This document shows positions 14,345-54,809 of a stretch of DNA of 64,000 bases, one piece after another; positions within the stretch are counted from its first letter, which is position 1; every line of letters starts with the position of its first letter. This DNA comes from a virus. A program made the translations under genes and the position numbers. A model generated the notes under the pieces. It was not told where the DNA came from and ran no database searches. It was given only the letters and a program-made list of their open reading frames with translations. The stretch lies in IMG/VR virus record IMGVR_UViG_3300031521_000001. The stretch is one strand, 5' to 3'.

Positions 14345-14345
14345 G

Positions 14346-14385
14346 AAAAAATCCTATCTAATTTTTCAATTAGATAGGATTTTTT
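14346..14385. terminator. 18-bp-stem hairpin aaaaaatcctatctaatt-tttc-aattagataggatttttt
   Basis: perfect inverted repeat with A/T runs. Confidence 0.7.
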
Positions 14386-14682: not shown

Positions 14683-14719
14683 AAAAACACTACTTAATAT
14701 TGAATTAAGTAGTGTTTTT
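14683..14719. terminator. hairpin aaaaacactacttaat-attg-aattaagtagtgttttt
   Basis: about 13-bp stem with A/T-run flanks. Confidence 0.6.
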
Positions 14720-16039: not shown

Positions 16040-16607
16040 TATTACATTTGCAACATTTACTTCTGTAATATTAATCGTACACTTTTGCAAGCTTCAAGTT
16101 GGCTTTTGCCTTTGATTATTTTTATTACTTTTTCAATTTCATTAATATCTAAGTGTGTTTAGTTGCACTATCTCCTTTTGCAAGCTTCAAGGTGGTTTCT
16201 GTACCATTAGATTTTTCATTGCTTTTACTATCTAAGTGTGTTTAATTGCACTATCTCCTTTTGCAAGCTTCAAGGTGGTTTCTATACCATTAGATTTTCA
16301 GTTTCATTTACAATTTAGTTTATTTCTACATGTGTTCATTTATAGTTATACACCTATTGCAAGCTTCAAGGTGATTTCTGTATCAACATTTTTCATTGTA
16401 TTTGAAATATATAAGTGTGTTCATTTGCACTATCTCCTTTTGCAAGCTTCAAGGTGGTTTCTATACCATTATATTTCTCATTGTATAAGCAAGATAATTA
16501 ATATGTAAGTGTGTTCATTTGCACTATCTCCTTTTGCAAGCTTCAAGGTGGTATTTTATACCATTACATTTTTCATTGCTTCAATCTGAAATTTGATTTG
16601 TTTCATT
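16040..16607. repeat. tandem minisatellite RA, 83-95 bp units, about 6 copies (about 16040 degenerate, 16148, 16231, 16326 degenerate, 16411, 16504); core ctaagtgtgttcatttgcactatctccttttgcaagcttcaaggtggtttctataccattagattttt
   Basis: head-to-tail near-identical units read directly from the sequence. Confidence 0.85.
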
Positions 16608-16608
16608 A

Positions 16609-16693
16609 TTGTAGTTCAAAATTACAAAAAGTTTTTTGTTTTACCAAATATTTAATGTTAAAGTTTTGAACTTTTTCAAGTACTCTTACTTGA
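16609..16693. repeat. RB element copy 1 (about 85 bp, MITE-like): TIR agttcaaaa...ttttgaact, terminal hairpin tcaagtac-tct-tacttga
   Basis: repeated at least 6 times in the island. Confidence 0.8.
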
Positions 16694-16815
16694 ATGAGTA
16701 TTAAAAAACCAAGTCATTTATAAGTTCTGTTAGCTTCTCAGCTTAGAAAAATAAACTTTCATTTGTCATATTTATTCTTGTAACTTTACAAATCTGCGAA
16801 ATGTATTATTATCAA

Positions 16816-16885
16816 TCTAAGTGTGTTCATTTGCACTATCTCCTTTTGCAAGCTTCAAGGTGGTATTTTATACCATTAGATTATC
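16816..16885. repeat. RA unit, isolated copy 6
   Basis: near-identical to the 16504 unit. Confidence 0.8.
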
Positions 16886-16915
16886 TATTAAATCTGATAT
16901 ATGTTTTGCTTTTTT

Positions 16916-17003
16916 ATTGTAGTTCAAAATTACAAAAAGTTTTTTGTTTTACCAAATATTTAATGTTAAAGTTTGAACTATTTTTTCAAGTACTCCTACT
17001 TGT
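16916..17003. repeat. RB element copy 2
   Basis: same sequence, including the caagtactcctacttg hairpin. Confidence 0.8.
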
Positions 17004-17083
17004 TTTTGTTATGAATAATAATCAAGGAACTTACTTCTTCTGACAAGTCAGTGTTTCAGTGTTAAAATTAATATTCATAGTGA

Positions 17084-17166
17084 AGATAGATGGAGTTGAA
17101 CCCAGTGTCAGTAACACTTGCCTTCTGCACAATTCGAATCGTGCTGCACCCTGTGTGCTTATCTTC
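17084..17166. ncRNA. GC-rich structured element flanked by a 7-bp inverted repeat (gaagata...tatcttc), with internal stem gcac-aattcgaatc-gtgc
   Basis: local GC-rich island in an AT-rich noncoding region; contains a T-arm-like ggagttgaacc but no complete tRNA cloverleaf. Confidence 0.3.
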
Positions 17167-17500
17167 ATCATTTTTATAATTTAATCAATAGTCAGTCCTT
17201 GTAGAGAAATAATAGCAGTCAGTCACTGATCATCTGACATTAGGTTCACACATCATCAAAAATTAATTTGATAGGTAATTTCCACGGTGTAGTTACTATT
17301 TACATTTATAACAAGATAAGTTCTACAGTTCTCATATCTATTTCAATGGACTTTTCATCTTTGATAATTTTCATTATCATTAACTCACCACTATTAGCAT
17401 CAAATTCATCTGGTTCATATATATTTTGTTACAAACATATACACTCTGATTTCAGATATTGCTGATATTTCTTGTTTAAATCTGATTTTTTGATTTAAAT

Positions 17501-17592
17501 TATTGTAGTACAAATATACAAAAAGTTTTTTGTTTTACCAAATATTTTTTGATATTTTTTCTACATTTTTTACTCAAGTACGTTTACAAGAG
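17501..17592. repeat. RB element copy 3 (divergent)
   Basis: attgtagtacaaatatacaaaaagttttttgttttaccaaatatt...actcaagtacgtttacaagag. Confidence 0.65.
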
Positions 17593-17764
17593 TTTTAAAA
17601 AATCAAATCATTTTTCAGTTCTTTTTATCTTCACAGATTAGAAATAACATTTTTTCATTTGTTATATTTACTTCTGTAACATTAAATTTATGTATTTTCA
17701 GTTTCACTATAATCTTGTTCAAGATTAAGGGTGGTTTCCTTACTACTAAATTGTGATTACTTTA

Positions 17765-17833
17765 ATCTAAGTGTGTTCATTTGCACTATCATTCTCTTGC
17801 AAGCTTTGAGAGGTTTTTATACCATTAGATTTT
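17765..17833. repeat. RA unit copy 7 (divergent)
   Basis: ctaagtgtgttcatttgcactatcattctcttgcaagctttgagaggtttttataccattagatt. Confidence 0.7.
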
Positions 17834-17861
17834 TTTCAATCTGAAATTTGATTTGTTTTTA

Positions 17862-17930
17862 TTGTAGTTCAAAATTACAAAAAGTTTTTTGTTTTACCAA
17901 ATATTTAATGTTAAAGTTTTGAACTTTTTT
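17862..17930. repeat. RB element copy 4 (lacks the terminal hairpin)
   Basis: attgtagttcaaaattacaaaaagttttttgttttaccaaatatttaatgttaaagttttgaact. Confidence 0.8.
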
Positions 17931-17971
17931 TCAATTGAAATTTAATTTTTGTGATTATATTTCTTTTGATA

Positions 17972-18056
17972 TTGTAGTGCAAAATTACAAAAAGTTTTTT
18001 GTTTTACCAAATATTTAATGTTAAAGTTTTGAACTTTTTCAAGTACTCTTACTTGA
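17972..18056. repeat. RB element copy 5 (complete, with hairpin)
   Basis: near-identical to copy 1. Confidence 0.8.
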
Positions 18057-18071
18057 AGTTTTTTGTTTTTT

Positions 18072-18135
18072 ATTGTAGTACAAAATTAATAAAAGTTTTT
18101 GATACTACCAAATATTTAATGTTAAAGTTTCAGTT
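18072..18135. repeat. RB element copy 6 (partial), abutting the stop of 18136..18474
   Basis: attgtagtacaaaattaataaaagtttttgatactaccaaatatttaatgttaaagttt. Confidence 0.65.
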
Positions 18136-18474
18136 TTAATATACGCATTCATATCCATCTGAATTCTCAAGTGTTTCAATAATTTCCAATAAAAAATCAT
18201 TAAAGTTTTTACTTGTATAATCTTTTGAAAAGAAATAATGATATTTTTCTAAAATCTCATCTCCTCTATTATAAAACAATTTTAATTTTGTTGCAGTATC
18301 TAATGCATCATCTTTTGACATTTCATGAGCCATATCTGCATAGTGCTCATTTTGACAATATTCATTATCTTGAAATTTCGCACCAATTTCTCTACATAAA
18401 GTTTCAATTAGATGTTCTCTATTTATGCTTGTTATAAACTTAATACCACTTTTTGTAATAATAGTTTTACTCAT
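18136..18474 (-). CDS. hypothetical protein
   Basis: 112-aa ORF; the overlapping plus ORF 18213..18437 is rejected. Confidence 0.7.
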   Translation of the reverse strand: MSKTIITKSGIKFITSINREHLIETLCREIGAKFQDNEYCQNEHYADMAHEMSKDDALDTATKLKLFYNRGDEILEKYHYFFSKDYTSKNFNDFLLEIIETLENSDGYECVY

Positions 18475-21093: not shown

Positions 21094-22737
21094 ATGTTAA
21101 AATATGATGATTATAATAAATTGAATGAGGCTTTCTTTCATCGTAGTAAAGATGAGTTAGAAAATCTCATACATTCATTTAAAAGCTTGATTATAAATCT
21201 AAAACAATCAATAGATAAAAAATATACATTAGATTTCTATAAAACTCAAATCAAAGAGGATTTAGAATCATATAAAATAAATATATTGAATAATTACAAT
21301 AAAAATACAATTAGTAAATTTAAAGATTTGTTTAAAGAATTTTTAAATAATGTAGATAATGACATAATTAAGCATATGAAATTAGGTAAATTTGCTAATG
21401 ATATATTAAAGATATATTCTATTAATAATTCTTTTGATATTAACATAAAGAATGTAAATAGTGTGTTTAAAGCTTATCTTGATAATGTTGATAGATATAT
21501 AGACAACACATATGATTTTTTCTACAATAAGATTGAGACTGATAAATCATATGAACCATATAATAAAATTGATATTAAAATAAATAAAGTCCCTATTGAT
21601 GAATATCAAAAAACAAAATACAAATATCAAATTGAGTTATTAAAATTACAAGAATGGATTACATACAACAATAAAAAAGTATTGATTATATTTGAAGGTA
21701 GGGATGCTGCAGGAAAAGGTTCAGCGATTAGAAATATCACAAGATTTCTAGATCCAAAGCATTTTAGAGTACAGACATTTGGTATACCTACAGAAGAAGA
21801 GAGTAATAATTGGTTTGATAGATATGAAAAATCTTTACCTAAAAATGGAGAAATTGTTTTTTTTGATAGATCTTGGTATACAAGAGGTTATGTTGAACCA
21901 GTGATGAAATATTCAACTGAAGATAAATATAATAAATTTATGAAAGAAGTCAATAACTTTGAAGATAAATTAATAGATGATGACATCATACTTATAAAAA
22001 TATGGTTCTCCATATCTCAAGATGTACAAAAAATGAGATTTGAATTAAGAAAATCTAATCCATTGAAATACTGGAAGTTTAGTAAGAATGATGAGCAAAC
22101 ATTAGACAAATGGGATGAATTTACTAAATATATAAATGAGATTTTCAAAAAAACAAATACTAAAGATTCTCCTTGGATAATAATAGATGCTGATGATGAA
22201 AATTATTCAAGATTAGAATCTTTCAATAGTATAATAAAATCAATAGAAAAAGATAAATCAAACATCAAAGAGGGTGGAATAAAAGTAATATTTGAAGATT
22301 TAGATGGACCATTAATTCCATATGATAAAAATTCAGATACCGACTATCATAAATTTTTTAATGATCCAGAAAAATGGAGTAAGACTGCTATGAGCAATTT
22401 AAACAATATTATTGAAAAGACAGAAGCAAAAGTAGTATTATCTTCTTCATATAGAGATGATAAACCATTAAGCGAAATAGAAAAGATGATGAAAACTGCT
22501 GGATTTAAATATAAAATATATGACGTTGTTCCAAATGACAAATCTAAAAAACGTGGATCTGATATAAAAGATTGGTTAAAGAATAATAAATCAGTTAGTA
22601 ATTTTATTATTATTGACGATAATAAGCATGACTTATATGAAGTATTTAGCAAAAAACACATTGTTAAAACTACTCATGAATTAGGAATAACAGATGATAT
22701 TAAAGATGAAGCTATTGATAAATTAAATACTAAATGA
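21094..22737 (+). CDS. ppk2: polyphosphate kinase 2 (PPK2) with an N-terminal extension and a C-terminal HAD-like phosphatase domain
   Basis: Walker A FEGRDAAGKGS and PPK2 motif FFDRSWY; C-terminal HAD motifs FEDLDGPL (I), VVLSSS (II), IIIDDNKHD (IV). Confidence 0.8.
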   Translation: MLKYDDYNKLNEAFFHRSKDELENLIHSFKSLIINLKQSIDKKYTLDFYKTQIKEDLESYKINILNNYNKNTISKFKDLFKEFLNNVDNDIIKHMKLGKFANDILKIYSINNSFDINIKNVNSVFKAYLDNVDRYIDNTYDFFYNKIETDKSYEPYNKIDIKINKVPIDEYQKTKYKYQIELLKLQEWITYNNKKVLIIFEGRDAAGKGSAIRNITRFLDPKHFRVQTFGIPTEEESNNWFDRYEKSLPKNGEIVFFDRSWYTRGYVEPVMKYSTEDKYNKFMKEVNNFEDKLIDDDIILIKIWFSISQDVQKMRFELRKSNPLKYWKFSKNDEQTLDKWDEFTKYINEIFKKTNTKDSPWIIIDADDENYSRLESFNSIIKSIEKDKSNIKEGGIKVIFEDLDGPLIPYDKNSDTDYHKFFNDPEKWSKTAMSNLNNIIEKTEAKVVLSSSYRDDKPLSEIEKMMKTAGFKYKIYDVVPNDKSKKRGSDIKDWLKNNKSVSNFIIIDDNKHDLYEVFSKKHIVKTTHELGITDDIKDEAIDKLNTK

Positions 22738-24726: not shown

Positions 24727-25082
24727 AAACATATCAACAATTTAATGAAATGAGCAATGTTGGATGTACTATATTTTTCAAAGTATATTTTAAATTTGAA
24801 AATGTGTATAAACAAATTGAGATATTAGATGAAAATAGAATAGATTATGATATATCTTATCATAATAAATTCATTAAAATAGATGCTTATGCTTATTCTA
24901 TAAGTGAGTATAATTTTCTTATATCAATTGAATTCAAAATAAATAAAAAATCACAAGAACTAATAAATCCAAATATGTCACTTGATAAAATTAGAAGTAT
25001 TGTAAAATCAGACAAAGGTTGGACGCCAACAAGTAAAGAAGAATTACCATACATTAATGATATAAATAAATTCAACTTATGA
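24723..25082 (+). CDS. family A variant, N-term MKTYQQFNE (closest to T4 MKTYQEFIAE), C-term INKFNL
   Basis: array IV. Confidence 0.75.
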   Translation: MKTYQQFNEMSNVGCTIFFKVYFKFENVYKQIEILDENRIDYDISYHNKFIKIDAYAYSISEYNFLISIEFKINKKSQELINPNMSLDKIRSIVKSDKGWTPTSKEELPYINDINKFNL

Positions 25083-25585
25083 AATATATAAAAAGATTTG
25101 AAAGTATAATAACAGAATTGAATTACTCAAGTAAAGGATTAACTTCTTTACCTGAGTTGCCTGATACATTAAAGAATTTGGGATGTCATCATAATAAATT
25201 AAGATATCTACCAGAATTACCAACTACATTAGAAGAATTGTTTTGTGGCGATAATGAGTTAAAAAAATTGCCAACTTTACCAAACACAATAACAAATTTA
25301 ATGATTCATCATAATGATTTGACAGAATTGCCAGATCTACCAGATTCATTGATAAATTTTTCATGTGGGCATAATAATTTAACTGAAATACCAAAATTAC
25401 CAAATAATTTAGTATATTTTTTATGTGATAATAATAATTTATCTGAATTACCAGAAATGCCAGAAACTGTAACTCAATTTAGTTGTAAGTATAATAATTT
25501 ACCATATGAAGATTTGAATGGATATTGGGATTGGTTTTATGATAGAAATCCAGAAAGAAAACAAGCAAAAAAATTCAACTTATGA
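25079..25585 (+). CDS. leucine-rich-repeat protein in family A frame (MKYIKRFE...AKKFNL)
   Basis: about 7 tandem LRRs of 20-22 aa (LPELPDTLKNLGCHHNKLRYLPELPTTLEELFCGDNELKKLPTLPNTITNL...). Confidence 0.8.
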   Translation: MKYIKRFESIITELNYSSKGLTSLPELPDTLKNLGCHHNKLRYLPELPTTLEELFCGDNELKKLPTLPNTITNLMIHHNDLTELPDLPDSLINFSCGHNNLTEIPKLPNNLVYFLCDNNNLSELPEMPETVTQFSCKYNNLPYEDLNGYWDWFYDRNPERKQAKKFNL

Positions 25586-26097
25586 GATATTTAAAAAAAT
25601 TTGAAAAATATAATGCATCTTTAGATTTAAATTATATTTTAGAAGATGATGTATATAGTGATTCAGATGCAATAAAATTATTAAAAAAAGTGAAATATGC
25701 TATTGACAATGATTGTGTTATTGATAATATTAATATACATTGGATGGAAAGAACTCCTTTAATTACATGCGCTGTTTTAGACTGTCATATAAAAACCCAG
25801 TCTAAATATAGAAATATATTTGAGCAAATAGCAAAAGAACTAATTAATTCAGGAGCTAATATAAATCATATAGATAAAGATAACAGAAGTGCTTTAATAT
25901 GGGCTACAGATAGAGGACATTTTGATGTAATGGAACTATTAATTGAAAATGGCGCAGATTGGAATATTATGGATGTATTCCATCATGAATTTCATGAATA
26001 TTTGAGTGATGAACATTTTGAAAAAATTATTCATAAATATCCAGAACAATATGAATTGTATAACATGAAAAACAACACGAACAAATTCAATTTATGA
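25582..26097 (+). CDS. ankyrin-repeat protein in family A frame
   Basis: ELINSGANINHIDKDNRSALIWATDRGHFDVMELLIENGADWN. Confidence 0.8.
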   Translation: MRYLKKFEKYNASLDLNYILEDDVYSDSDAIKLLKKVKYAIDNDCVIDNINIHWMERTPLITCAVLDCHIKTQSKYRNIFEQIAKELINSGANINHIDKDNRSALIWATDRGHFDVMELLIENGADWNIMDVFHHEFHEYLSDEHFEKIIHKYPEQYELYNMKNNTNKFNL

Positions 26098-26585
26098 AAC
26101 ATATAAAAACATATACTCAGAAAGAATTGGATGATAATTTGTTGAAATATTCAGCAAAACAGGCATCTTTGCAAAAAGTAAGAGAATTGATAACAGATGG
26201 AGCTAACGTTAATTGTTTTGATCGTATCAGATATAACACGCCATTAATTAACGCATCACAACAACTAAATTATAGTACAATTAAATTGTTAATAGAAAAT
26301 GGTGCTGATATAAATTTAGTAAATAAAAACAATAAAAATTGTATATTTTATATTGTTAATCAAAACACATATACTTATACTAAATATAAAAATAAAATTA
26401 ATAATATAATTGATTTATTAATTTCATCTGGAATAAATTTAAACAATAAAAATAAAAGTGATGTTGATATTTTTGATAATATTCAAGAATCAAATCCTTT
26501 TATTCTTCAATATATAATAGATAATTATCCAGAAGAATACAAAGAATATTTAATGAAAAAAACTGCAAACAAATTTAACTTATGA
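26094..26585 (+). CDS. ankyrin-repeat protein in family A frame
   Basis: LITDGANVNCFD...NTPLINASQQLNYSTIKLLIENGADINLVNKNN. Confidence 0.8.
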   Translation: MKHIKTYTQKELDDNLLKYSAKQASLQKVRELITDGANVNCFDRIRYNTPLINASQQLNYSTIKLLIENGADINLVNKNNKNCIFYIVNQNTYTYTKYKNKINNIIDLLISSGINLNNKNKSDVDIFDNIQESNPFILQYIIDNYPEEYKEYLMKKTANKFNL

Positions 26586-28290: not shown

Positions 28291-29013
28291 TTATTTCTGA
28301 AATGATGGTTTCAGCCACATTTTTGTGTGTTTAAAAATATAATCTCTTAATTCTGGAAATTCATTCAGCATCAAAATTGTTTTTAATGTATCATACTTAA
28401 AACACTTTGTAAGTTCATCTTGAATTCTTTCATTAGAAACTACTTTCATTTTTGATTCATAATCATAATTTTTGATAGCGATTTCAATATCATCAGTCAT
28501 TCTGAATCCTTTTGTGATACAAAAACGGACGCATCTCAAAATCCGTAGGCTGTCCTCATCAAATGTAAGTTCACATGGTCTTGGAGTTCTAAGAATTCCC
28601 ATTTTTAAATCTTTCACACCATCAAACAAGTCAATCAAAGTACCATTCTCATCAACAGCCATAGCATTTAATGTGAAATCACGTCTTATTAAATCATCTT
28701 CTAGTGTACCAAGTTCTAAAATTGGACGTCTTGTACCTTCATAATAGCCAATTTCCTTTCTTGCCATTACAAAATCTGCTGTCAATCCTTCATGCTTATG
28801 TCCTTTTGGAAATTTTGCTTTGATAGTAAAACATCTTGGTGTTGAATTGTATATAGTGTAACCATTTTTACGTAGCCATAACTCCATATCCATAAATCCA
28901 GATTCAACTGATTGATTCATATCATCTAATACAAAAGTAAAGTCAATGTCTTTACAATCAACTCCTAAAATACGGTCACGAACCGCTCCTCCCACTTCAT
29001 AAATTTTTGGCAT
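28291..29013 (-). CDS. nucleotidyltransferase, tRNA CCA-adding/poly(A) polymerase head domain (Pol-beta superfamily)
   Basis: motifs GGAVRDRILG...DIDF and RRDFTLNAM. Confidence 0.8.
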   Translation of the reverse strand: MPKIYEVGGAVRDRILGVDCKDIDFTFVLDDMNQSVESGFMDMELWLRKNGYTIYNSTPRCFTIKAKFPKGHKHEGLTADFVMARKEIGYYEGTRRPILELGTLEDDLIRRDFTLNAMAVDENGTLIDLFDGVKDLKMGILRTPRPCELTFDEDSLRILRCVRFCITKGFRMTDDIEIAIKNYDYESKMKVVSNERIQDELTKCFKYDTLKTILMLNEFPELRDYIFKHTKMWLKPSFQK

Positions 29014-30666: not shown

Positions 30667-31605
30667 TTAGAAAAAATTGGAAGCGTCAACATATTTGAAT
30701 CCACATCTTTTAGCGAATGTTTTATCACTTGTCAAATCTCCAACCATTGTACATTGTGATGAGTCAAGTTTATATTTTTCAATAAAATCTACACCTAATC
30801 CTACACCTGGTTTTCTACAATAACAAATTATTGGAGGTACTGAATGTCCACAATATTTATAATCAATATTAACTCCTAACATTTCATTTGTTTTTTCAAA
30901 ACAAGCTATTGCAGTTTCATGAGTTAATAAGCCTTTTGCTATACCGCTTTGATTTGAAACCCCTAGTAGTATATAACCTTGTTTCTGTAATTCTAAAAGT
31001 TTTTCTGTTCTACCAGGAATAATTTCTATATCATTCACATCAGTAGGGAAATGTCCTCCACTTTTAGTTACTCTTAAAGTACCGTCATAATCAAATAAAA
31101 TAGCTTTATTTGTATATTCTGATGGTTTACGTTTAAAATCAATTTTTTCTATATCATCAATTCCTTCTGATAGTTCTGGTGCTTCAAAATGTTTATTAAT
31201 TTTATAAAGTGCTGCAACAGGAAACATATGTGGATCATTAACTTTAGAATAATCACTTAAATTTGTAAACAACCTACCTTGAGTTTTTATCATTCTGGTA
31301 ACAGCATTGAACATACAATCTTCAATTTTTGTTGTGAAATAAAGACACAATACATAGTAGCCATATTTTTTTGCTAATGCAATAGCATCAGCCCTAGATA
31401 ACTTAGTAGAATATGTACCATCTAAGATAATATCTACTCCATCTATCATCAAGTTTTCAAGTTTTTTGTTGAGTGAACTTAATGTACCACCTTCAATATC
31501 TCTTGAAAGTAATGTACACTTATAATCAACCCATTTTTCAACAATACTTGATTTTCCTGCTGCTGGTAATCCACAAGTTATAACTAATTTTTTATCTTTT
31601 ATCAT
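30667..31605 (-). CDS. pnkp: polynucleotide 5'-kinase / 3'-phosphatase (T4 Pnkp-like)
   Basis: N-terminal P-loop ITCGLPAAGKSS; C-terminal HAD phosphatase motifs ILFDYDGTL (DxDGT), LLGVSNQSG, VGDLTSD. Confidence 0.85.
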   Translation of the reverse strand: MIKDKKLVITCGLPAAGKSSIVEKWVDYKCTLLSRDIEGGTLSSLNKKLENLMIDGVDIILDGTYSTKLSRADAIALAKKYGYYVLCLYFTTKIEDCMFNAVTRMIKTQGRLFTNLSDYSKVNDPHMFPVAALYKINKHFEAPELSEGIDDIEKIDFKRKPSEYTNKAILFDYDGTLRVTKSGGHFPTDVNDIEIIPGRTEKLLELQKQGYILLGVSNQSGIAKGLLTHETAIACFEKTNEMLGVNIDYKYCGHSVPPIICYCRKPGVGLGVDFIEKYKLDSSQCTMVGDLTSDKTFAKRCGFKYVDASNFF

Positions 31606-31948: not shown

Positions 31949-33160
31949 TTAATATCTATAATTATTCCATTTATCATTTTCATCTACAATTTTTCCATTG
32001 TTATCATAATAATAGTTATTAATAATTACATAAGTAGATAATCCTAATGATACTATAAGTATAATAATAAATAACCAAATTTGCTGTGTTCCACTTAAAT
32101 CTACATCAATATAATCAAAATCTTTAAATTGCTTTCTTTGCCAGTATTTTGGTATATTGCTTTCTGTCCAATTTGCTAATTCTTCTAGATTTAATTTATC
32201 TTTACCATTATAGTAACTTCTAAAATTAACTTCAAATGTTGGTTTATCACTCCATGAGAATGCATCTACCCACTGTAGTTTTTTTGATACTGAGTCCATA
32301 CCAAAACATAATATGAGTTCATTCTTATTACCACCTAACCAATAGCTTTGTTGTTCTTTTACTATTGAACGAGATTTATTATAATAAAACATTAAAAATA
32401 CTCTTATCTGATTTCTTGGACCATAATAGCCATTGATATATTGCCAAGATTTCAATTCTTTTAATGTTGGTTTATAACCTAAAAAAGGAGATTGCTCAGT
32501 TGTACTGCTTCCTGAAAACATACCACTATCACCATCATTATTTGAATATAATTTTGGATAATCATATAATCCATCTATTTTTGCATCCTCTTTAGAAATT
32601 TTTGAAAATCCAAATATAGAATATGAACTATTTATTTTATTCGTGTATGTATGTTCAGTTGTTATTGTTTTTGAACTATAAATATTATTGTCCCATTTGA
32701 TATTATACATATTACCATCATGATTATAAAAATCTCTGTTCATATCTACAAATATTTTTTGAGCATTCCAAGATTTCAACAATCTATAATATTCATTTTT
32801 TGAGATTTCTTGCTCTTTACCATTTGATAATACTTGTGACCAATGTTCAGGATGATCGTCTCTATGAGAACAATCATATGATTCACTGTGAGATTTACCA
32901 TTACCATCATCTACTGTTCTTGAACAAGTTTCTGTAATCCATTCATCCCAAAATTCATAATAATGTGCCTCAGTAACATAGTTACCAAAATACTCAGTTG
33001 CTTGTGTCTTACTATGAATCATTATAGTACTAATAAGTAAAGTTAGTAATATAGATGGTACAATAACAATGAGATATTCCCACCAAACAACTTTTGTTCT
33101 GAAAAAAATAAAAATTAAGATAGCAATTAAAATTGGAATGAAATAAATGAATGTTGTCAT
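31949..33160 (-). CDS. membrane protein with N- and C-terminal TM helices and a Cys-containing ectodomain
   Basis: 403-aa ORF; TM helices at both ends. Confidence 0.75.
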   Translation of the reverse strand: MTTFIYFIPILIAILIFIFFRTKVVWWEYLIVIVPSILLTLLISTIMIHSKTQATEYFGNYVTEAHYYEFWDEWITETCSRTVDDGNGKSHSESYDCSHRDDHPEHWSQVLSNGKEQEISKNEYYRLLKSWNAQKIFVDMNRDFYNHDGNMYNIKWDNNIYSSKTITTEHTYTNKINSSYSIFGFSKISKEDAKIDGLYDYPKLYSNNDGDSGMFSGSSTTEQSPFLGYKPTLKELKSWQYINGYYGPRNQIRVFLMFYYNKSRSIVKEQQSYWLGGNKNELILCFGMDSVSKKLQWVDAFSWSDKPTFEVNFRSYYNGKDKLNLEELANWTESNIPKYWQRKQFKDFDYIDVDLSGTQQIWLFIIILIVSLGLSTYVIINNYYYDNNGKIVDENDKWNNYRY

Positions 33161-35112: not shown

Positions 35113-35742
35113 TTATACATCAAATCCATTTATATGAGTATTATTAATCAAGAAATCATCAATTTTTTTCATATTTTTAAGTGGATAAATTACAACATCA
35201 TATTCAACTCCAACCACGTTATTCTTTTTTCCTATTTTATATCTTTTATATTGTATTTCAAGTCCTGACATTTCTTTTTCTAAATCTTCTATTGAATAAT
35301 CAGTAGATAAAAAATGAACAACATATAATTTAGAATGATGAAAAGTATCAAATATTTTCTCAAACTTAAATAATACAATCATAACTATTAGCACAACTAA
35401 TAGAACGAATAGAGCTAATGAATAATGTTGATATCCTATGCACATACCTATTGCTGATGCCATCCAAATGATAGCGGCAGAAGTTATACCACGAACATTT
35501 CCTCCTTCTTTAAAAACAACCCCAGCACCAATGAAGCCAATTCCTGTTACAATATTTGAAGCTATTCTATCGCCACTAATCAAATTAACTGATAGTATAG
35601 TAAACAAGCATGAACTAACGCAAATCAATATCATTGTTTTGAAACCTGCAGGTTTACCATGAAATCCTCTTTCTATTCCTAATATAGATCCAGCAGCTAA
35701 TGATGCTAATATTTGTATTATATTTTCGTATTCTGGTAGCAT
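35113..35742 (-). CDS. mgtC: MgtC/SapB-family membrane protein
   Basis: ILGIERGFHGKPAGFKTMILI...GIGFIGAGVVF... matches the MgtC N-terminal signature (GxER..K.AGxRT); hydrophobic core plus a C-terminal soluble domain. Confidence 0.8.
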   Translation of the reverse strand: MLPEYENIIQILASLAAGSILGIERGFHGKPAGFKTMILICVSSCLFTILSVNLISGDRIASNIVTGIGFIGAGVVFKEGGNVRGITSAAIIWMASAIGMCIGYQHYSLALFVLLVVLIVMIVLFKFEKIFDTFHHSKLYVVHFLSTDYSIEDLEKEMSGLEIQYKRYKIGKKNNVVGVEYDVVIYPLKNMKKIDDFLINNTHINGFDV

Positions 35743-36835: not shown

Positions 36836-37159
36836 ATGAAATATATAAAGAAATTTGAAAATACTGAAGATAAACCAAAAGTTGGTGATTATGTATTGAT
36901 ATCAATTGATAATGATGAAGAAAATGATTTTTACTCTAATAATCCAGGACAAATTATTAAATTTTTTACTCTACAAAAATATAGGTTTACAGTTATGATA
37001 TCATATGGTAAAAACATTCCTGATAACATGAAAAATATATTATTACTTAATAAAAGATGTGGTTATTATAAAATTTTTGACTATGAAGATATCTTCATAT
37101 TTTCTAAAAATAAAGAAGATTTAAAACTAAAAATAGCATCAAATAAATTTAACTTATGA
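36836..37159 (+). CDS. family A small protein (MKYIKKFE...GDYVL...ASNKFNL)
   Basis: array V. Confidence 0.8.
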   Translation: MKYIKKFENTEDKPKVGDYVLISIDNDEENDFYSNNPGQIIKFFTLQKYRFTVMISYGKNIPDNMKNILLLNKRCGYYKIFDYEDIFIFSKNKEDLKLKIASNKFNL

Positions 37160-37473
37160 AATATATAAAATCATTTGAAAAAATAAATAATACAATTCAT
37201 TATAAAATTCCAGCATATCCGTTAGAAGTATATTTTATTGCAATAACTAAAATTGGTATGACACAAGATGAAATATCTCATTGGATTAATAATAAATACG
37301 CTCAATATTGGAATAACTCACATTTTAAATTTATATATTTAAATAACACATACAATGATTATACTAAAAAATATCAATGGAGTTGGACAAATAACATAAA
37401 TAAAGCAAATGAGACTGTAATAGAAATAACTGTTGAAGATTATGAAATTGATGCAAACAAATTTAACATATGA
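37156..37473 (+). CDS. family A frame with divergent core (MKYIKSFE...DANKFNI)
   Basis: array V. Confidence 0.75.
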   Translation: MKYIKSFEKINNTIHYKIPAYPLEVYFIAITKIGMTQDEISHWINNKYAQYWNNSHFKFIYLNNTYNDYTKKYQWSWTNNINKANETVIEITVEDYEIDANKFNI

Positions 37474-37793
37474 AATACATTAAGAAATTTGAAATGATTG
37501 AAGATAGCCCAAAAGTTGGAGATTATGTCTTAATGAATATTAGTTATGATAAAAATTCAGATTTTTATCTTAATTATCCAGGTAAAATAATTAAATTTTT
37601 TACAATAGGAAAATATCGTCAAGGTGTAAATATATCATATGGAGATAATATTCCTGATAATATGACAGAAATATTAGGGTATACAAAAAAACATGGATAT
37701 TATAAAAATTTTCAATATAAAGAGATATATGCATTTTCAAAAAATAAAGAAGATTTAAAAATTAAAATAAGCGCAAATAAATTCAATATATGA
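37470..37793 (+). CDS. family A small protein
   Basis: paralog of 36836 (about 60% identity). Confidence 0.8.
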   Translation: MKYIKKFEMIEDSPKVGDYVLMNISYDKNSDFYLNYPGKIIKFFTIGKYRQGVNISYGDNIPDNMTEILGYTKKHGYYKNFQYKEIYAFSKNKEDLKIKISANKFNI

Positions 37794-38158
37794 AATACTT
37801 GAAAAAATTTGAAGATAATATAAATGAGCCTGAAGTTGGAGATTATGTATCTATAATAGGTAAAAAATTTATTAATCATTTAAGAAGATACTATGATGAT
37901 AAAGATATTGTTAATTTGAAAAAATATCTTCTTAATTTTCCTGGAAAAATTCATAGTACCTTTAATGATAAAAGAATAGGTGTGACATATGGTTTTGATG
38001 TTCCAGAAGATGTAAAAAAATTTTTACAATATGATAAACCTTATGGAGGTTACAATAAAATATTTAATTATGAAGATATAAATGCATTTGGAAAAACAAT
38101 AGAAGAATTAAAATATAAAATAGAACTTAAAAATAACATTAACAAATTTAATATATGA
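37790..38158 (+). CDS. family A small protein
   Basis: array V. Confidence 0.8.
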   Translation: MKYLKKFEDNINEPEVGDYVSIIGKKFINHLRRYYDDKDIVNLKKYLLNFPGKIHSTFNDKRIGVTYGFDVPEDVKKFLQYDKPYGGYNKIFNYEDINAFGKTIEELKYKIELKNNINKFNI

Positions 38159-38466
38159 AATACATAAAATCATTCAAAAATAAAAATTTAGAATATGAGG
38201 TAGGAGATTGTGTTAAAATAAAAATAATTCCTGATTATGTAAGTCATATAGAAAGAATTGAAGATAATTTATTTGTAAAAATAATAGAAATGAATTTTTT
38301 GACGAATCATAATAATAGTGATATTGATAATATATTTATTGTGTTTGAAACATTAATCACTAAACAAAAAATATCTGGTAATATATATTTCATTTCTAAA
38401 AAAATGACTGAATCAGAAATAGATTATTGTAAGATTAAATCAGAAACAAATAAATTCAACTTATGA
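38155..38466 (+). CDS. family A small protein (GDCVKI variant)
   Basis: array V. Confidence 0.75.
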   Translation: MKYIKSFKNKNLEYEVGDCVKIKIIPDYVSHIERIEDNLFVKIIEMNFLTNHNNSDIDNIFIVFETLITKQKISGNIYFISKKMTESEIDYCKIKSETNKFNL

Positions 38467-38756
38467 AATACTTAAAAAAATTTGAAGATATTGAAAATAC
38501 TCCAGAAATTGGTGATTACATTATTCCAAATGTAGAAACATTGAATCATCTTATTGACAATAAAATTAATAATCATGTATATCAAATAATAGGAACAAAA
38601 GAAAGAAATATGGGTGGTTTTTTATATATCATTAAAGTAAAATTGAATGATAATCAATTAGATGACTGGTATTTATCCAATTATGAAATAATGCATTTAT
38701 CAAAAAACAAAGAAGATTTAGAAGTATTATTACAATCAAATAAATTTAACATATGA
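38463..38756 (+). CDS. family A small protein
   Basis: array V. Confidence 0.8.
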   Translation: MKYLKKFEDIENTPEIGDYIIPNVETLNHLIDNKINNHVYQIIGTKERNMGGFLYIIKVKLNDNQLDDWYLSNYEIMHLSKNKEDLEVLLQSNKFNI

Positions 38757-39034
38757 AATATATAAAAACATTTGAAAGAATTAATTATTATATACCAGAA
38801 AAAGGTGATTATGTTATTTGTGGTGGTAATAATACATGGGATAGTAAATTCGCAAAATTTATATCAAACAACATTGGAGTATTAATAAATCATTTACCTA
38901 ATCAATATAGAATAGATTATGATTATATTGATCCATATTCAATATATTTAACAAATAGAAAAGATATATTATATTGGTCAAGTGATAAGAAAGAATTAGA
39001 AGAAATTCTACAAGCAAACAAATTTAATTTATGA
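38753..39034 (+). CDS. family A small protein
   Basis: array V. Confidence 0.8.
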   Translation: MKYIKTFERINYYIPEKGDYVICGGNNTWDSKFAKFISNNIGVLINHLPNQYRIDYDYIDPYSIYLTNRKDILYWSSDKKELEEILQANKFNL

Positions 39035-39342
39035 AACACATTAAAACATTTGAAAATAATTATGAATATGCAGAAGTTGGAGATTATGTTATTATTAATG
39101 TGAATAATCTAAAATTCAGCAATGATAATATAGGTAATATTTACAAGAAAATGTTAACTGATAATGTATATAAAATAATTGACAGTAAAATAGTATCAGG
39201 AAACAGACAAATATATCTAATTGATTTATATGACGATGAACATATTAACGGATATTATATTGATAGTAAGAATGTATTAGCATTTGATAAAGATAAAGAA
39301 TTTGTTAAATGTAAAAATGATATAAACAAATATAATTTATAA
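39031..39342 (+). CDS. family A small protein (C-term INKYNL)
   Basis: array V. Confidence 0.8.
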   Translation: MKHIKTFENNYEYAEVGDYVIINVNNLKFSNDNIGNIYKKMLTDNVYKIIDSKIVSGNRQIYLIDLYDDEHINGYYIDSKNVLAFDKDKEFVKCKNDINKYNL

Positions 39343-39718: not shown

Positions 39719-40612
39719 ATGAAAGAATTAGAATTAAAAAAATTAGTACATTCAACTATAGACAACACTATCAAGTATATTTTTTATACTGAAGATAAAT
39801 TGATAGTTGAATTTTCTTATATCAATAAGAATGATGGTAAAAATATTATTTGCTGTCCAGTTTCAACATTTTGTAATATAGGCTGCAAATTTTGTCACAC
39901 AGCAGAATATATTGGTAAAATTAAAAATAGAAACCTAACATCATTAGAGATTTCAAATGGAGTTGATTATATTTATAATGATTTGAAACTATCTGAAAAC
40001 CCAAAAACTTTATTGATAAGCTCCATGGGTATTGGTGAAATTGTAACCAATGTTGATGAAGTTGTAGAATCAATGATAAATATTCAAAATACTTATCTTA
40101 AAGATATATATGTTAGATTTGCATTTGCAACATCTTTACCTGAATCTCACAAAATCGAGTTTTTCAAATTGACAAATAAAATTGCAGAGAATAATTTACC
40201 TGTTAAGTTGCATCTATCATTACATTATACAACAGATGAATTAAGAAGTCAATGGATGCCAATGTCAATGAAAATTGAACCAACTATTGCAGCAGTTGAT
40301 TACTATAAAGCAACTACAGGAAATGATGTTGAAATACATTATGCACTAATAGAGAATGTTAATGATAAATCAGAAGATGCTATGAGATTAAGCAATCTTA
40401 TTAAAGGTAAAGGTTATAATGTTAAATTTTTATTCTATAACAAGAAAGATAATATAGACGCTGAACCATCTAACATTTCTAAAATTAGAAACTTTGTTGA
40501 TATATTTAGTCTTGTAGGAATAAAACATGAATACTATGTACCTCCTGGACTCACAATTGGAGCATCTTGTGGTCAACTATCTATAAATGAGTATATTAAA
40601 ATAAAAAAATAA
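39719..40612 (+). CDS. radical SAM enzyme of the RlmN/Cfr family (RNA adenine C2/C8 methyltransferase), N-terminally truncated relative to bacterial RlmN
   Basis: CNIGCKFCHTAE (Cx3Cx2C, compare RlmN CALECKFCSTAQ) and C-terminal GASCGQL (compare the RlmN Cys355 motif AACGQL). Confidence 0.75.
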   Translation: MKELELKKLVHSTIDNTIKYIFYTEDKLIVEFSYINKNDGKNIICCPVSTFCNIGCKFCHTAEYIGKIKNRNLTSLEISNGVDYIYNDLKLSENPKTLLISSMGIGEIVTNVDEVVESMINIQNTYLKDIYVRFAFATSLPESHKIEFFKLTNKIAENNLPVKLHLSLHYTTDELRSQWMPMSMKIEPTIAAVDYYKATTGNDVEIHYALIENVNDKSEDAMRLSNLIKGKGYNVKFLFYNKKDNIDAEPSNISKIRNFVDIFSLVGIKHEYYVPPGLTIGASCGQLSINEYIKIKK

Positions 40613-40630
40613 TAATTAAATAATAATTAA

Positions 40631-42091
40631 ATGAATAATAGAAACTTCATATTACATATAAAAGAAGATAAATACAAAAAATTATTAATTGATTATATTT
40701 TTAAATATCGTCAATTCGAAAACTTATATCTTATAATATTAAAAGAGAATAAGGATGATTTTAATTTTTTATCTAATTATAAAGTAATGAGAGCTATTCT
40801 TGCGGAAACTACTGGAGGTAAAGATAAAAATGAAGTTGATTTTATTAGATATAAATATAAAGAAAATGATAAAATGAATGAATTAATTATTTTATCAAAA
40901 AGTCTTAAAATACATAATATTTCAGATTTGATTAAAAGAGTAAAATCAAATTATAAATCTTTTTTCACTAAAATAAGAAATAAAGTTAAAGCCAACGTTC
41001 CATGTACAAAAAAGTTATCACTATTGACTAAATATTCCATTCTAGTTGATAAAATTGCATTTTCAATAAAGAAAAAGGATAAAATTGGAATCAACTTGAG
41101 TAATAAAATGTTTTATATTGATTTTAAGCATAAAATATTACCAGATAATATACAAAGTCTTAAAGTCGTTTACTCAAATAAAGAAGTTTATTTACATTTT
41201 AATTACTTGACTGAAGATATATTAAACACAAATAATTCATTAATAAAAGAAGCAGGAATAGATGTAGGTATTAATAATTTATTAGCTATATTTATTGATG
41301 ATAAAACATCTAAATCAATAATTGTTGACGGAAATATTTTTAAAACTTATAATTCAAAATTCAACAGGTTCTTGTCTAAACTTAATGAATCAATTTCTAA
41401 AGAAGTCATAGAATTTAAACTCAGTAATACTGGTACTAAATATGCAGTTAAGTGGACTAAAAGAGGAATAGAATTACGTAAATATAAGACATTTATTTAT
41501 GAAAAAAGAAATCGTTATTTTTATGATCAATTTCATAAAGTTAGTAAACGTGTGGTTGAATTATTGAAATTAAATTCTGTAAACAATCTAACAATTTCAT
41601 ACAATCTAGCTAGATTAAAATATAATGGTGATTGTAAATTAAATAAAAAAGTAAAACAAAATTTCATACAAATTCCTTTCATAAAACTACTAAATTACAT
41701 TCAATATAAAAGTAATGAAGTTGGAATTCAAGTAGATATAATTGATGAATCTTACACATCAAAGTGCTCATGTATTAGTGATAATGTGAATGATCCGTTA
41801 GATAAAGAACTAAATGGTGTTCGTTCTAAAAGAGATTTATTTACTGATAAACTAATAAATAAAACAATGAATGCTGATTTGAACGGTGCTGTCAATCATA
41901 TAAAAAAATCAAACAAAAATAATAATTTTTCTTGGTTGGAAAATTATATGTTTAAACTGTGTAATCCAGTTAAAATTAAATGCGACTACGATTTCTTTAA
42001 ATATTTAAAGAATAGTGTGCTCTGGCAAGGAATTTCATCAAAAGAAGTTCAAACGTCACTTCATGTACAAAATTGTACAAGTTTAAGTTGA
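40631..42091 (+). mobile_element. tnpB: IS200/IS605-family (IS1341-like) TnpB RNA-guided nuclease homolog; no tnpA
   Basis: RuvC-I GIDVGINNL, RuvC-II RVVELL, hallmark ESYTSKCSC, RuvC-III NADLNGAVNHI; second CxxC of the zinc finger is missing. Confidence 0.85.
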
Positions 42092-44632: not shown

Positions 44633-45124
44633 TTAAAATTTTGTTGTCCATTTTGGATTAGGTAAATAATTAACCTCTTCATATTTTTTTAATAGTTTAT
44701 AAAGTGGTTCCCAATCTGAATCTGGAAAAAACGCTGCCTTATCATCCAGGATCACGTTGAAATACATCTTCTTATCATAGAATCCGAAATTTCCATTATT
44801 AGATGATATGTTTGGATTTTCATTTATATTATCAAAATGTATAAAATTATTATCAAACTCTTTTATATAATTACTAATTTCATTTTGATATGATGATGTC
44901 CACATTATTATATGAATATCATTTCTATTAGTTAATATTTGAAGTACTTCTTTTGCGAAAGGATAGAACTCAATAGTTTTATCATTCAAGTTATAACTTG
45001 GTTTAATTACAGTTGAATGCAAATCTATAACCCAATAAGTTGTATACCATTCTTTTTTAAAAGAATTGGTAAACACCTTATCAATGTATTTAGTCATGGA
45101 TGTCGTTAATAATTCTTCAAACAT
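44633..45124 (-). CDS. possible HAD-like hydrolase/5'-nucleotidase with a variant motif I (DLHST)
   Basis: VIDLHSTV, IIMWTSS, VILDDKA resemble HAD motifs I, II and IV. Confidence 0.35.
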   Translation of the reverse strand: MFEELLTTSMTKYIDKVFTNSFKKEWYTTYWVIDLHSTVIKPSYNLNDKTIEFYPFAKEVLQILTNRNDIHIIMWTSSYQNEISNYIKEFDNNFIHFDNINENPNISSNNGNFGFYDKKMYFNVILDDKAAFFPDSDWEPLYKLLKKYEEVNYLPNPKWTTKF

Positions 45125-45440: not shown

Positions 45441-45848
45441 TTAGTCGAATGGTTCTATAATTTTCTTAATATATTTAACTGGTATATCAACTTCACAACA
45501 CAAATGATTTCTATTAGATGACATATCTTGGTTTGAGAAGTTATCATCATAAAAAGTTATACCATCTTTAATTAATTCTTGTGTATCAAGTGCAACTATA
45601 AATGAATCATCATAATACCTAAACATATCGCCAGTTGTATGTTTAATAGGATACGAAAAGAACAACATTCCTGTATCAACAATTGATTTGTGTTGTGGTT
45701 GGTTAATTTTTAGTCCTTCTTTTTCAATATTTTCTATTCTATCTTCAGTAGTTACATGGTATAAAACATCATATTTGCTAATATCATGCTGATTAAACTC
45801 TTTTTCATACGTTTCACCTGTAAAAGGTGATGTGAATTGTTTTTTCAT
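45441..45848 (-). CDS. hypothetical protein
   Basis: ORF. Confidence 0.65.
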   Translation of the reverse strand: MKKQFTSPFTGETYEKEFNQHDISKYDVLYHVTTEDRIENIEKEGLKINQPQHKSIVDTGMLFFSYPIKHTTGDMFRYYDDSFIVALDTQELIKDGITFYDDNFSNQDMSSNRNHLCCEVDIPVKYIKKIIEPFD

Positions 45849-47937: not shown

Positions 47938-48555
47938 TTAGTGATATAAATTATTTTGATGTATGTATTTATCAACATCTAATGGTACAAAGATACTAAT
48001 ATCTTCTGAATTGGCAACATTATTTCTTATTTTTGTTGATGATAATGATGATATTTTAAAATCTTTAAGAAAAACAGTATCTTTATTTATAATTACATTA
48101 TCACTAAGTAATTCAGATTTTTTATATTCAAAACATTTTTCATTTGTTTCATTATCAAAATCTCTTGGTAAAACTAAAAAAGGATAGTTTTTACATATAA
48201 CTTTAAAATTTTTCCATTTATCTATATCTAGCCAAATATCTAATCCCATTATCATATAATAATTAGTATCTGGATTAGAATTACTTAGTGAAGTTAATGC
48301 ATTAATTGTATATGATGGCAAAGGTAAATACTGTTCAACGGTATTGACACTAATATTATCATAGTCTTCTACAGCTAATTTACACATATTACATCTATCC
48401 AAATAATCAGCCAAGTCATATTTGAAAGGATTTTGTGGTGATACTACTAATTGTACTTCGTCAATATAATTTAGCTTATATATATACTCAGCTATCTTAA
48501 CGTGTGTATTATGGCAAGGATTGTAGCTACCAAAAAAAAGTGCAACATTTTTCAT
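47938..48555 (-). CDS. nicotinate/nicotinamide mononucleotide adenylyltransferase (NadD/NMNAT family)
   Basis: FGSYNPCHNTH (GxFxPxHxxH nucleotidyltransferase motif) and C-terminal SSTKIRNNV (ISSTxIR motif). Confidence 0.75.
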   Translation of the reverse strand: MKNVALFFGSYNPCHNTHVKIAEYIYKLNYIDEVQLVVSPQNPFKYDLADYLDRCNMCKLAVEDYDNISVNTVEQYLPLPSYTINALTSLSNSNPDTNYYMIMGLDIWLDIDKWKNFKVICKNYPFLVLPRDFDNETNEKCFEYKKSELLSDNVIINKDTVFLKDFKISSLSSTKIRNNVANSEDISIFVPLDVDKYIHQNNLYH

Positions 48556-49058
48556 TTGAATATGTTATTGAGTTTTACTGAAATTTCATTATTTGTTGAT
48601 ACATAAAATTTATGTAAATCAACTAAATCATCAACAAAAATTTCCAAATCTGATTTGGTTGATAATTTTTTTTCTTTATTCTTACTATATACTAAAGAAA
48701 TATTATTAGAGCTAAAACTCATCAATCCAATATTTTCATGTTCATTTTTACAATCATCATCATATTTTCCACCACAAAATATAATATTCGATGCAAACCA
48801 ATTTAATGGATAATCTTCTCTATATTTCTCAGTGGAGTCTTTTAATGTCAAAGTAATATTAAAACTACTAACAATTGAATTATTGAGTATATTTTTAATA
48901 TCATCTAATACTAAAGTGTTAAATTTAACACAATCATAATCTCTAACTATATTTTCTCCATTTATACTAAAATGATATGTTGATTTATCATCAGAAAAAA
49001 TATTATGCATTAACAATTCTTCAAAAATTAGTATAATGAAATTTTTTATTTCTTCCAT
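48552..49058 (-). CDS. hypothetical protein, overlaps the start of the NMNAT gene
   Basis: ORF. Confidence 0.65.
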   Translation of the reverse strand: MEEIKNFIILIFEELLMHNIFSDDKSTYHFSINGENIVRDYDCVKFNTLVLDDIKNILNNSIVSSFNITLTLKDSTEKYREDYPLNWFASNIIFCGGKYDDDCKNEHENIGLMSFSSNNISLVYSKNKEKKLSTKSDLEIFVDDLVDLHKFYVSTNNEISVKLNNIFK

Positions 49059-49273
49059 GATATATTTTTATATTCACCTAAATAGTTATCAAATGCTGTC
49101 ATCCAAGCATATACATCTTCTTCATATGATGTATCTGGATCATAATAATCCAATTTGACTTTCATTGACATATCATCAGAAAAAATCAAATCATATTTAG
49201 CATTCCAGCTCAAGTCAGAATTTACAATTTCATGAGCTTCTATGTTTAAATCTATTAATTCACCTATTTTCAT
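49046..49273 (-). CDS. hypothetical small protein
   Basis: ORF. Confidence 0.55.
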   Translation of the reverse strand: MKIGELIDLNIEAHEIVNSDLSWNAKYDLIFSDDMSMKVKLDYYDPDTSYEEDVYAWMTAFDNYLGEYKNISWKK

Positions 49274-54489: not shown

Positions 54490-54578
54490 GAAGAATGACT
54501 GGATTCGAACCAGTAATAATTTATAATTTTTTACAAATGCTTTTTTGGCTACTAGTTTACCGATTAACTTACATTCTT
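54490..54578 (-). tRNA. tRNA-like gene, 89 nt: perfect 7-bp acceptor stem, D-arm AGTT-AATCGGTAA-AACT, T-arm ACTGG-TTCGAAT-CCAGT. The anticodon region is about 15-20 nt too long (intron or long variable arm); anticodon unresolved
   Basis: reverse complement of 54490-54578 folds into acceptor, D and T arms with canonical GG and T-Psi-C-like motifs. Confidence 0.55.
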
Positions 54579-54709: not shown

Positions 54710-54809
54710 TAGTTAAGGCGGGACTCGAACCCGCATGAGAAATTAATCTCTGAGATACCTCATTAATAGGATTTTAATCCTAAACGTCTAACCATTTCGT
54801 CACCTAACT
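54710..54809 (-). tRNA. tRNA-like gene, 100 nt: acceptor AGTTAGG/CTTAACT (one G-U pair), U8, D-loop AAATGGTTAGA, T-arm GCGGG-TTCGAGT-CCCGC. About 26 extra nt in the anticodon/variable region (stem-loops aggat-taaaa-atcct and atgag-N21-ctcat), probably an intron
   Basis: strong acceptor and T-arm pairing read from the reverse complement. Confidence 0.5.

Follow-up and report, generated by a model that had tools for sequence, protein, structure and literature searches.

A divergent nadD gene and its neighborhood in a 64-kb window of a probable jumbo- or mega-phage genome

The IMG/VR virus record IMGVR_UViG_3300031521_000001 provides a stretch of 64,000 nucleotides, referred to below as the window, which encodes on its minus strand a 205-aa NadD-family nicotinate/nicotinamide mononucleotide adenylyltransferase (nadD; 47938..48555). 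Directly upstream, on the same strand, is an open reading frame (ORF) of 168 aa, ORF168 (48552..49058). Both are located where a first-pass annotation of the sequence had placed them; that annotation went on to propose the pair as a possible minimal two-gene salvage module for nicotinamide adenine dinucleotide (NAD), in which ORF168 could, for example, supply nicotinamide mononucleotide (NMN) to the adenylyltransferase. We favor instead, at a probability of about 0.7, a solitary phage nadD whose product boosts a single adenylylation step in NAD+ synthesis, with an unrelated accessory ORFan beside it. Within the locus, nadD is the sole part with an assigned NAD function.

In this explanation, nadD would be an old acquisition from bacteria, with Bacteroidota accounting for those of the closest cellular homologues that are named, and purifying selection would have kept it in a group of jumbo or mega phages with very AT-rich genomes. 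The encoded enzyme would transfer AMP from ATP to a pyridine mononucleotide, which by family default would be nicotinic acid mononucleotide (NaMN) and possibly NMN, to yield nicotinic acid adenine dinucleotide (NaAD) or NAD+, respectively, and would thereby strengthen a single step of the NAD+ synthesis that goes on during infection. The mononucleotide would be supplied by host enzymes or by enzymes from outside the window, with NadE performing the final amidation if the substrate is NaMN. The likely benefit would be a sustained NAD+ pool for NAD+-using functions of the phage, together with some relief from NAD+ depletion; to this extent, the earlier proposal of a role in sustaining NAD+ during infection, possibly against NAD-depleting defenses, is plausible. 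ORF168 would be an unrelated, fast-evolving ORFan that landed between nadD and a small upstream gene, orf75, in some lineages, and it is probably of the binding-protein kind that phages use for host takeover or counter-defense.

The NadD protein and the phage clade that carries it

The identification of the adenylyltransferase, which had been made from two quoted motifs, FGSYNPCHNTH (aa 8-18) and SSTKIRNNV (aa 172-180), is upheld by profile searches. The nadD product matches the NCBIfam model TIGR00482 with 142.1 bits (cut-off 112.45; E=2.1e-41), residues 6-204 of 205 aligning with profile positions 1-194 of 194, and also matches the Pfam CTP_transf_like domain (PF01467; E=2.4e-15). Solved structures of bacterial NadDs, namely, 8aih (1.2e-16), 2h29, 1kam, and 1k4k, are recovered as well, and in these alignments GSYNPCHNTH of the phage protein falls on GTFNPVHLAH and SSTKIR falls on SSTKIR or SSTMIR. 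The model for the NMN adenylyltransferase (NMNAT) of NadR (TIGR01526) reaches only 14 bits, and PHROG 3462 (nicotinamide-nucleotide adenylyltransferase) gives only E=0.029.

In an alignment of 20 sequences, comprising the window protein with 8 phage-clade and 11 cellular homologues, H15, H18, the motifs SPQNPxK, PSYT, and MGxD..WK, and the residues S172, I176, and R177 are invariant; the central invariant positions are S39-P43, K45, P80, S81, T83, G104, D106, W114, and K115. Score, coverage, both histidines, ISSTxxR, and the central motifs place the protein squarely among the NadDs. The first-pass annotation had named as its own refutation a partner ORF devoid of a nucleotide-metabolism fold combined with an NMNAT whose His motif is missing. 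The former is indeed what we find for ORF168, as detailed below, whereas the His motif of the NadD is intact.

Two features distinguish the NadDs of the phage clade. The Gly of HxGH is replaced by Thr (in one instance by Val), the window motif being HNTH, and ahead of SSTxIR the clade carries an insertion of about 22 residues (roughly aa 138-160) relative to the nearest cellular homologues. That these clade-specific features have been kept across phage lineages might suggest a repurposed NadD with another substrate or role, for example, an NMN-preferring synthesis of NAD+ that feeds neighboring phage functions or the production of a non-canonical dinucleotide. Against such repurposing, the full-length match exceeds the curated threshold of the NadD equivalog model, and the protein keeps every residue that is invariant in the cellular NadDs. 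Moreover, eukaryotic NMNATs likewise lack the Gly of HxGH, so that a non-Gly residue at this position is tolerated in the superfamily and the Gly is not catalytically required. The part of this alternative that concerns the neighboring genes is considered with them below.

The gene has been maintained by selection. Its ratio of nonsynonymous to synonymous substitution (dN/dS) is 0.17-0.28 by the Nei-Gojobori method in comparisons with four lineages, which marks nadD as a real, intact gene under purifying selection. Four nadD-carrying lineages, with NadD identities of 86% (P0004), 84% (P0005), 81% (P0007), and 67% (P0010), share the same syntenic block. Records of the exact window NadD (P0003) come from 13-20 metagenomic contigs of up to 711,471 bp, and nine viral contigs of IMG/VR, 113-256 kb in length, encode relatives with 81-86% identity; the identities of the relatives encoded at the equivalent syntenic position range from 66 to 86%. 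Altogether, nadD is syntenic in the loci L007, L011, L013, and L015 and in the nine IMG/VR loci L018-L026, and its position is shared by at least five related jumbo-phage lineages. The nearest cellular homologues are 39-41% identical and, where named, come from Mucilaginibacter, Chitinophagales, and a "Bacteroidetes bacterium."

The window itself has a G+C content of 23% throughout and about 147 ORFs, mostly small and densely packed in long same-strand blocks. It contains a T4 gp30.3-family protein, TnpB, ankyrin and leucine-rich-repeat (LRR) proteins, and a GOLLD RNA; no structural genes are present within it. Because of its IMG/VR viral relatives, the gp30.3-family protein, the GOLLD RNA, and the dense small ORFans, the window most likely represents a portion of a jumbo- or mega-phage genome. 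The possibility that it derives from a reduced bacterial genome was considered and rejected on the strength of the same features. When the portion between 44.5 and 52 kb was compared with 50,697 phage records in the public databases, no DNA similarity was found. A scan for promoters and terminators around the nadD locus returned 38 sites against 38 expected, along with 0 terminators, in this AT-rich DNA.

ORF168, a patchily distributed neighbor of nadD

The proposal of a two-gene module drew on the overlap between the two genes: the stop of ORF168 and the start of nadD share 4 nt (ATGA), which had been read as translational coupling of partners. However, a 4-nt overlap is the commonest gene spacing in the window, being observed in 42 of the 129 adjacent same-strand pairs, with 17 more pairs overlapping otherwise, and nadD in the L011 and L015 lineages overlaps different upstream genes in like manner. 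Since such overlaps are generic, start/stop overlap is uninformative on functional partnership in this genome, and the one joining ORF168 to nadD is no evidence for it.

The distribution of ORF168 is more telling. Directly upstream of nadD in the L007, L011, L013, and L015 lineages is an ORF of 69-83 aa whose end either overlaps the nadD start or comes no more than 4 nt before it, and these loci therefore have no space for ORF168. In L007 and L011, the abutting gene is a homologue of orf75 (49046..49273, minus strand), the small ORFan that precedes ORF168 in the window; tblastn finds this homologue in L007-L012 with 82-83% identity, ending 1-6 nt before the nadD start or overlapping it. The adjoining of the orf75 homologue and nadD in L007 and L011 thus marks the point at which ORF168 was inserted. 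Neither tblastn nor a family hidden Markov model (HMM) detects ORF168 in the L007, L011, L013, and L015 loci or in the nine 20-kb IMG/VR loci (L018-L026), and the same HMM finds no paralogue among the six-frame ORFs of the window. ORF168 accompanies nadD only in the lineage of the window (L001-L006) and on a 987-bp contig, L017, where nadD is likewise preceded by a version with 63% identity. The NadD sequences do not pair the window with L017 as mutual closest relatives, and the distribution is therefore patchy. An HMMER scan of 1.84 billion representatives adds just eight further relatives. Two of these could be placed (L027 and L028) and neither has nadD nearby: one comes after a gene homologous to an unrelated 403-aa gene of the window (31949..33160), and the other lies among ORFans. 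ORF168, missing from four lineages that keep nadD and found elsewhere without it, is thus not co-conserved with nadD as a partner would be. It also diverges more quickly than its neighbor: between the window and L017, ORF168 is 63% identical, with dN = 0.24 and dN/dS of about 0.44, and NadD is 83% identical.

As for biochemical function, ORF168 retrieves nothing below E=0.2 from Pfam, NCBIfam, or PHROGs; all 10 members of its family give only noise against Pfam, and the family profile searched against PDB sequences gives noise at E=2. A structure model built from the 10 sequences (an earlier one from 2 sequences was too poor, with a pLDDT of 54) takes the form of a helix/sheet/helix sandwich of the small alpha/beta type. 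The closest shapes to this model are the Mediator Med17 C-terminal domain, the TriTu immunity protein 7zhm_D, CyaY/frataxin, AcrIIA11 (9utm_B), and the C-terminal domain of T4 MotA, and Foldseek searches against PDB and BFVD gave nothing below E=0.08. Thus, small alpha/beta-sandwich binding proteins (frataxin/CyaY, 7zhm_D, 9utm_B, and the MotA C-terminal domain) are the nearest in shape, with no significant match among them. Folds of the Nampt/Namat, PRPP-synthetase-like, and nucleosidase types are not among the structural matches. The residues invariant in the family (K5, N67, W87, F94, and F115) are mostly hydrophobic and do not appear to form a catalytic set. Taken with the model, these observations suggest that ORF168 is probably an accessory ORFan encoding a non-enzymatic binding protein.

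An atypical NMN- or NaMN-producing enzyme coupled to nadD, which is what the two-gene salvage or reconstitution module would call for, is therefore not what the ORF168 protein resembles, there being neither a nucleotide-metabolism fold nor a domain match. The module can claim the 4-nt ATGA overlap and the recurrence of ORF168 directly upstream of nadD in two diverged lineages, those of the window and L017; the comparative data, however, have already largely refuted it, and we consider it highly improbable.

NAD-related genes and other cargo of the window

A Pfam domain scan of the 64-kb window covered all ORFs of at least 90 aa at E<=1e-3. Among these, there are no NAPRTase/Nampt/Namat, PncB, PRPP-synthetase-like (Adps), NAD synthase (NadE), PnuC, NadR, or Nudix domains. 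In the Preiss-Handler scheme, NadD acts after PncA and PncB and before NadE, all of which it requires unless it accepts NMN and has a supply of it. Because neither an NMN- or NaMN-producing enzyme nor NadE was found in the window, the locus does not constitute a minimal salvage module. In the 5-10 kb around nadD, the genes of the window and its relatives encode ORFans and PspC, Metallophos, radical SAM, and TnpB proteins, and those relatives with precomputed Pfam annotation have no NAD-biosynthetic genes in this range.

The enzymes that nadD would need could nonetheless lie farther away in the phage genome. In that case, nadD would be a component of a complete pathway, either Preiss-Handler-like (pncB-nadD-nadE) or of the NARP2 type, and the phage would be autonomous for NAD+ reconstitution. 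The exact NadD occurs on contigs of up to 711 kb, of which 64 kb are seen here, and published jumbo phages include some with pncB-nadD-nadE clusters or full salvage pathways (PMC11662467). Yet the NAD genes of those phages tend to cluster, in contrast to the neighborhoods just described, and a lone nadD is documented in a 735-kb phage (PMC11662467). On balance, a complete pathway beyond the window is possible but doubtful.

Of the ADP-ribose-related proteins that had been reported elsewhere in the window, one is confirmed. A microbial-type poly/mono-ADP-ribose glycohydrolase (PARG; 6020..6823, plus strand) matches Pfam PF10021 at E=1.7e-19 and is directly followed by an HD-domain protein (6826-7578; PF01966, E=2.6e-11). 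The NADAR (DUF1768) protein fails to materialize, with no Pfam match in the scan and nothing in a six-frame motif scan. The suggestion that PARG and NADAR could feed ADP-ribose into a module with nadD loses its footing accordingly, as PARG is 41 kb from nadD on the opposite strand and the second protein was not found; furthermore, ADP-ribose and nicotinamide cannot be turned back into NAD+ by NadD alone.

A candidate user of NAD+ lies closer. The 135-aa product of orf135 (45441..45848, minus strand), a gene that shares a block with nadD and lies 2 kb downstream of it, resembles the NAD+-binding, ADP-ribosyltransferase-fold lobe of the RNA 2'-phosphotransferase Tpt1/KptA. PHROG 5470 ("RNA 2'-phosphotransferase") matches it at E=1.2e-4, with residues 16-129 aligned to profile positions 86-180 of 183, so that only the C-terminal, NAD+-binding lobe is matched. 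Pfam PF01885 (Tpt1/KptA) is weakly matched by 9 of 12 family members, the best with E=0.0014, which is below the cut-off, and DarT is matched by 1 of the 12. The PF01885 hit, at 19.1 bits where the cut-off is 26, extends only over profile positions 98-167 of 177, which correspond to the C-terminal NAD+ lobe. The family profile retrieves the Tpt1 structure 8tfz from PDB with an insignificant E of 0.74, in an alignment that places the invariant LYHVT on LYHGT; a second invariant motif is FFSYP. All relatives that carry nadD encode this protein at 83-87% identity, with dN/dS of about 0.11-0.14, which makes it as conserved as NadD, and the gene is split by frameshifts in L004 and L013. From these partial matches, the product of orf135 is not a Tpt1/KptA, which would have two lobes and the catalytic Arg-His-Arg residues in the N-lobe, and is at most a stand-alone ADP-ribosyltransferase-fold lobe, which may be an NAD+-using protein. 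Because the matches are sub-threshold and the gene is frameshifted in two loci, we do not count it in a proven module.

The window also encodes several RNA-repair-type proteins: a PPK2-HAD_SAK fusion (21094-22737, plus strand; E=1e-72 and 8e-24), a Pnkp-like protein combining an AAA_33 kinase and a PNK3P phosphatase (30667-31605, minus strand), and a CCA-adding/poly(A)-polymerase-like protein (28291-29013, minus strand). A cREC_REC (cyclic-phosphate processing receiver) domain is likewise present among the scanned ORFs. Together, orf135, PARG, and the RNA-repair-type genes would fit the published picture of phages that pair NAD+ synthesis with NAD+ use. Downstream of orf135, a 163-aa protein (44633-45124, minus strand) matches PHROG 1238 ("phosphoheptose isomerase") at E=2.5e-8 and shows weak HAD/NIF-phosphatase-like hints in Pfam; it is kept as a 163-aa ORF in L013 and L015.

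These genes lend the repurposing of NadD its remaining support, in that a conserved candidate NAD+-using protein only 2 kb away, PARG, and the PPK2-HAD_SAK, Pnkp-like, and CCA/poly(A)-polymerase-like proteins could be the recipients of NAD+ made from NMN. With the sub-threshold assignment of orf135, and with frameshifts in L004 and L013 that make the link anything but obligatory, we hold a change of substrate or role to be quite unlikely. A broader version of the idea would have the divergent NadD act as an NMN-accepting, one-step NAD+ synthase feeding orf135, PARG, and the RNA-repair set, in the capacity of weapons or repair, with ORF168 as a lineage-specific modulator; the locus would then be an island of NAD+ supply and use rather than one of counter-defense reconstitution. 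This, too, is unlikely. Were NadD to prefer NMN, or orf135 to prove an NAD+-using effector, the locus would serve, modestly, as a model of the coupling between NAD+ supply and NAD+ consumption in giant phages.

Several points weigh against our preferred explanation of a lone nadD beside an unrelated ORFan. The window amounts to 64 kb of a possibly much larger genome, and partner enzymes may be encoded elsewhere in it. The HNTH motif and the insertion of about 22 residues could mean that the specificity or regulation of the NadD is altered, and the preference for NaMN or NMN cannot be read from its sequence. A rise in host NAD+ flux from a single extra NadD is a role that we infer. Finally, ORF168 is intact directly upstream of nadD in two diverged lineages, which leaves some room for a lineage-specific functional link.

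The window has additional features. A full-length GOLLD RNA is encoded at 14729-15164 on the minus strand (Rfam RF02032, model positions 1-416 of 416; 243 bits, the gathering score being 150), inside a 3.8-kb stretch (14298-18136) almost without ORFs. Downstream of it, in the same ORF-poor region, are tandem repeats at 16141-16581 and 17851-18130, which comprise 2.5-5 copies of an 83/179-nt period and 2.7 copies of a 110-nt period, respectively. GOLLD forms large RNA-only complexes (PMC12286853), and a copy in a mega-phage-like genome of 23% G+C is possibly worth a look of its own. Two unusually long tRNA-like genes, of 89 nt (54490-54578) and 100 nt (54710-54809), both on the minus strand, score 41 bits each with the Rfam tRNA model; ARAGORN calls only the first, as a tRNA-Phe with an odd AAA anticodon, and the two may contain introns or be otherwise atypical. 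A TnpB/Cas12f-like protein with OrfB_IS605 and TNB domains (40631-42091, plus strand) lies beside a weakly matching radical-SAM protein (39719-40612, plus strand), and L013 has a radical-SAM gene at the equivalent place without TnpB. Cargo that is unusual for a phage further includes eukaryote-like repeat proteins, comprising four ankyrin-repeat proteins and one LRR protein, as well as an MgtC-family membrane protein (E=5e-35), distributed over 11054-13990 and 25079-26585 on the plus strand and 35113-35742 on the minus strand. At 4-2002 and 36836-39342, both on the plus strand, six and eight consecutive ORFs, respectively, each of about 100-115 aa and joined to the next by a 4-nt overlap, may be tandem paralogue families.

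Comparison with known phage NAD+ systems

As the evidence stands, nadD in the window is an ordinary auxiliary metabolic gene, and the locus cautions against inferring an NAD+ reconstitution pathway from a single adenylyltransferase and an adjacent ORFan. None of the described reconstitution systems is matched beyond a shared theme or step. NARP2 of Vibrio phage KVP40 combines Nampt and Nmnat, and 94% of Nampt-bearing phages also have Nmnat (bioRxiv 10.1101/2024.02.11.579819). It has the same type of final step, the adenylylation of a pyridine mononucleotide, but the adenylyltransferase of the window belongs to a different family and there is no Nampt in the window. NARP1 comprises Adps and Namat, and the window is without PRPP-synthetase-like and NAPRTase-like domains, so that only the theme of phage NAD+ supply is shared. 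Similarly, NARP3 comprises a PnuC-like transporter and an NadR-like enzyme (PMC13464706), neither of which has a domain counterpart in the window, and again only the general theme is common to both. The fold predicted for ORF168 is unlike that of any component of NARP1 or NARP3.

The closer comparison is with cellular NadDs and with those of other very large phages. The window protein resembles bacterial NadDs in its full-length TIGR00482 match, its ATP-binding GxxNPxHxxH motif, its SPQNPxK, PSYT, GxD..KW, and C-terminal SSTxIR motifs, and its size class; it differs from them in its 39-41% identity, in HNTH and the approximately 22 extra residues, in having no adjacent nadE, and in its phage-like genome. 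A 2024 survey described "NAD-jumbo phages" that carry nadD, NAMPT, nadR, nadM, and nadE in various combinations, and the over-expression of nadD was argued to raise NAD+ synthesis (PMC11662467). Unlike the Preiss-Handler cluster (pncB-nadD-nadE) found in some of these phages, the loci of the window and its relatives have no pncB or nadE adjoining nadD. In other respects, the NAD-jumbo phages offer a good parallel: there, likewise, nadD resides in a very large phage and is sometimes the sole NAD-biosynthesis gene alongside genes for NAD+ consumption, a lone nadD being explicitly described in the 735-kb phage LR756501 (PMC11662467, Microbiome 2024). The NadD of that phage is recovered by tblastn with the window NadD at only 28% identity, and the window shows no DNA similarity to deposited phages over the compared 44.5-52 kb. 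On account of this low identity and the lack of a DNA match, the window phage represents a separate, undeposited clade, and its nadD was probably acquired independently of that of LR756501. Since the lone nadD of the 735-kb phage is already published, a phage nadD, even a solitary one, is a known kind of gene. What the window contributes is a new, divergent member of this kind and, with it, a further divergent clade to be counted among the very large environmental phages known to carry nadD.

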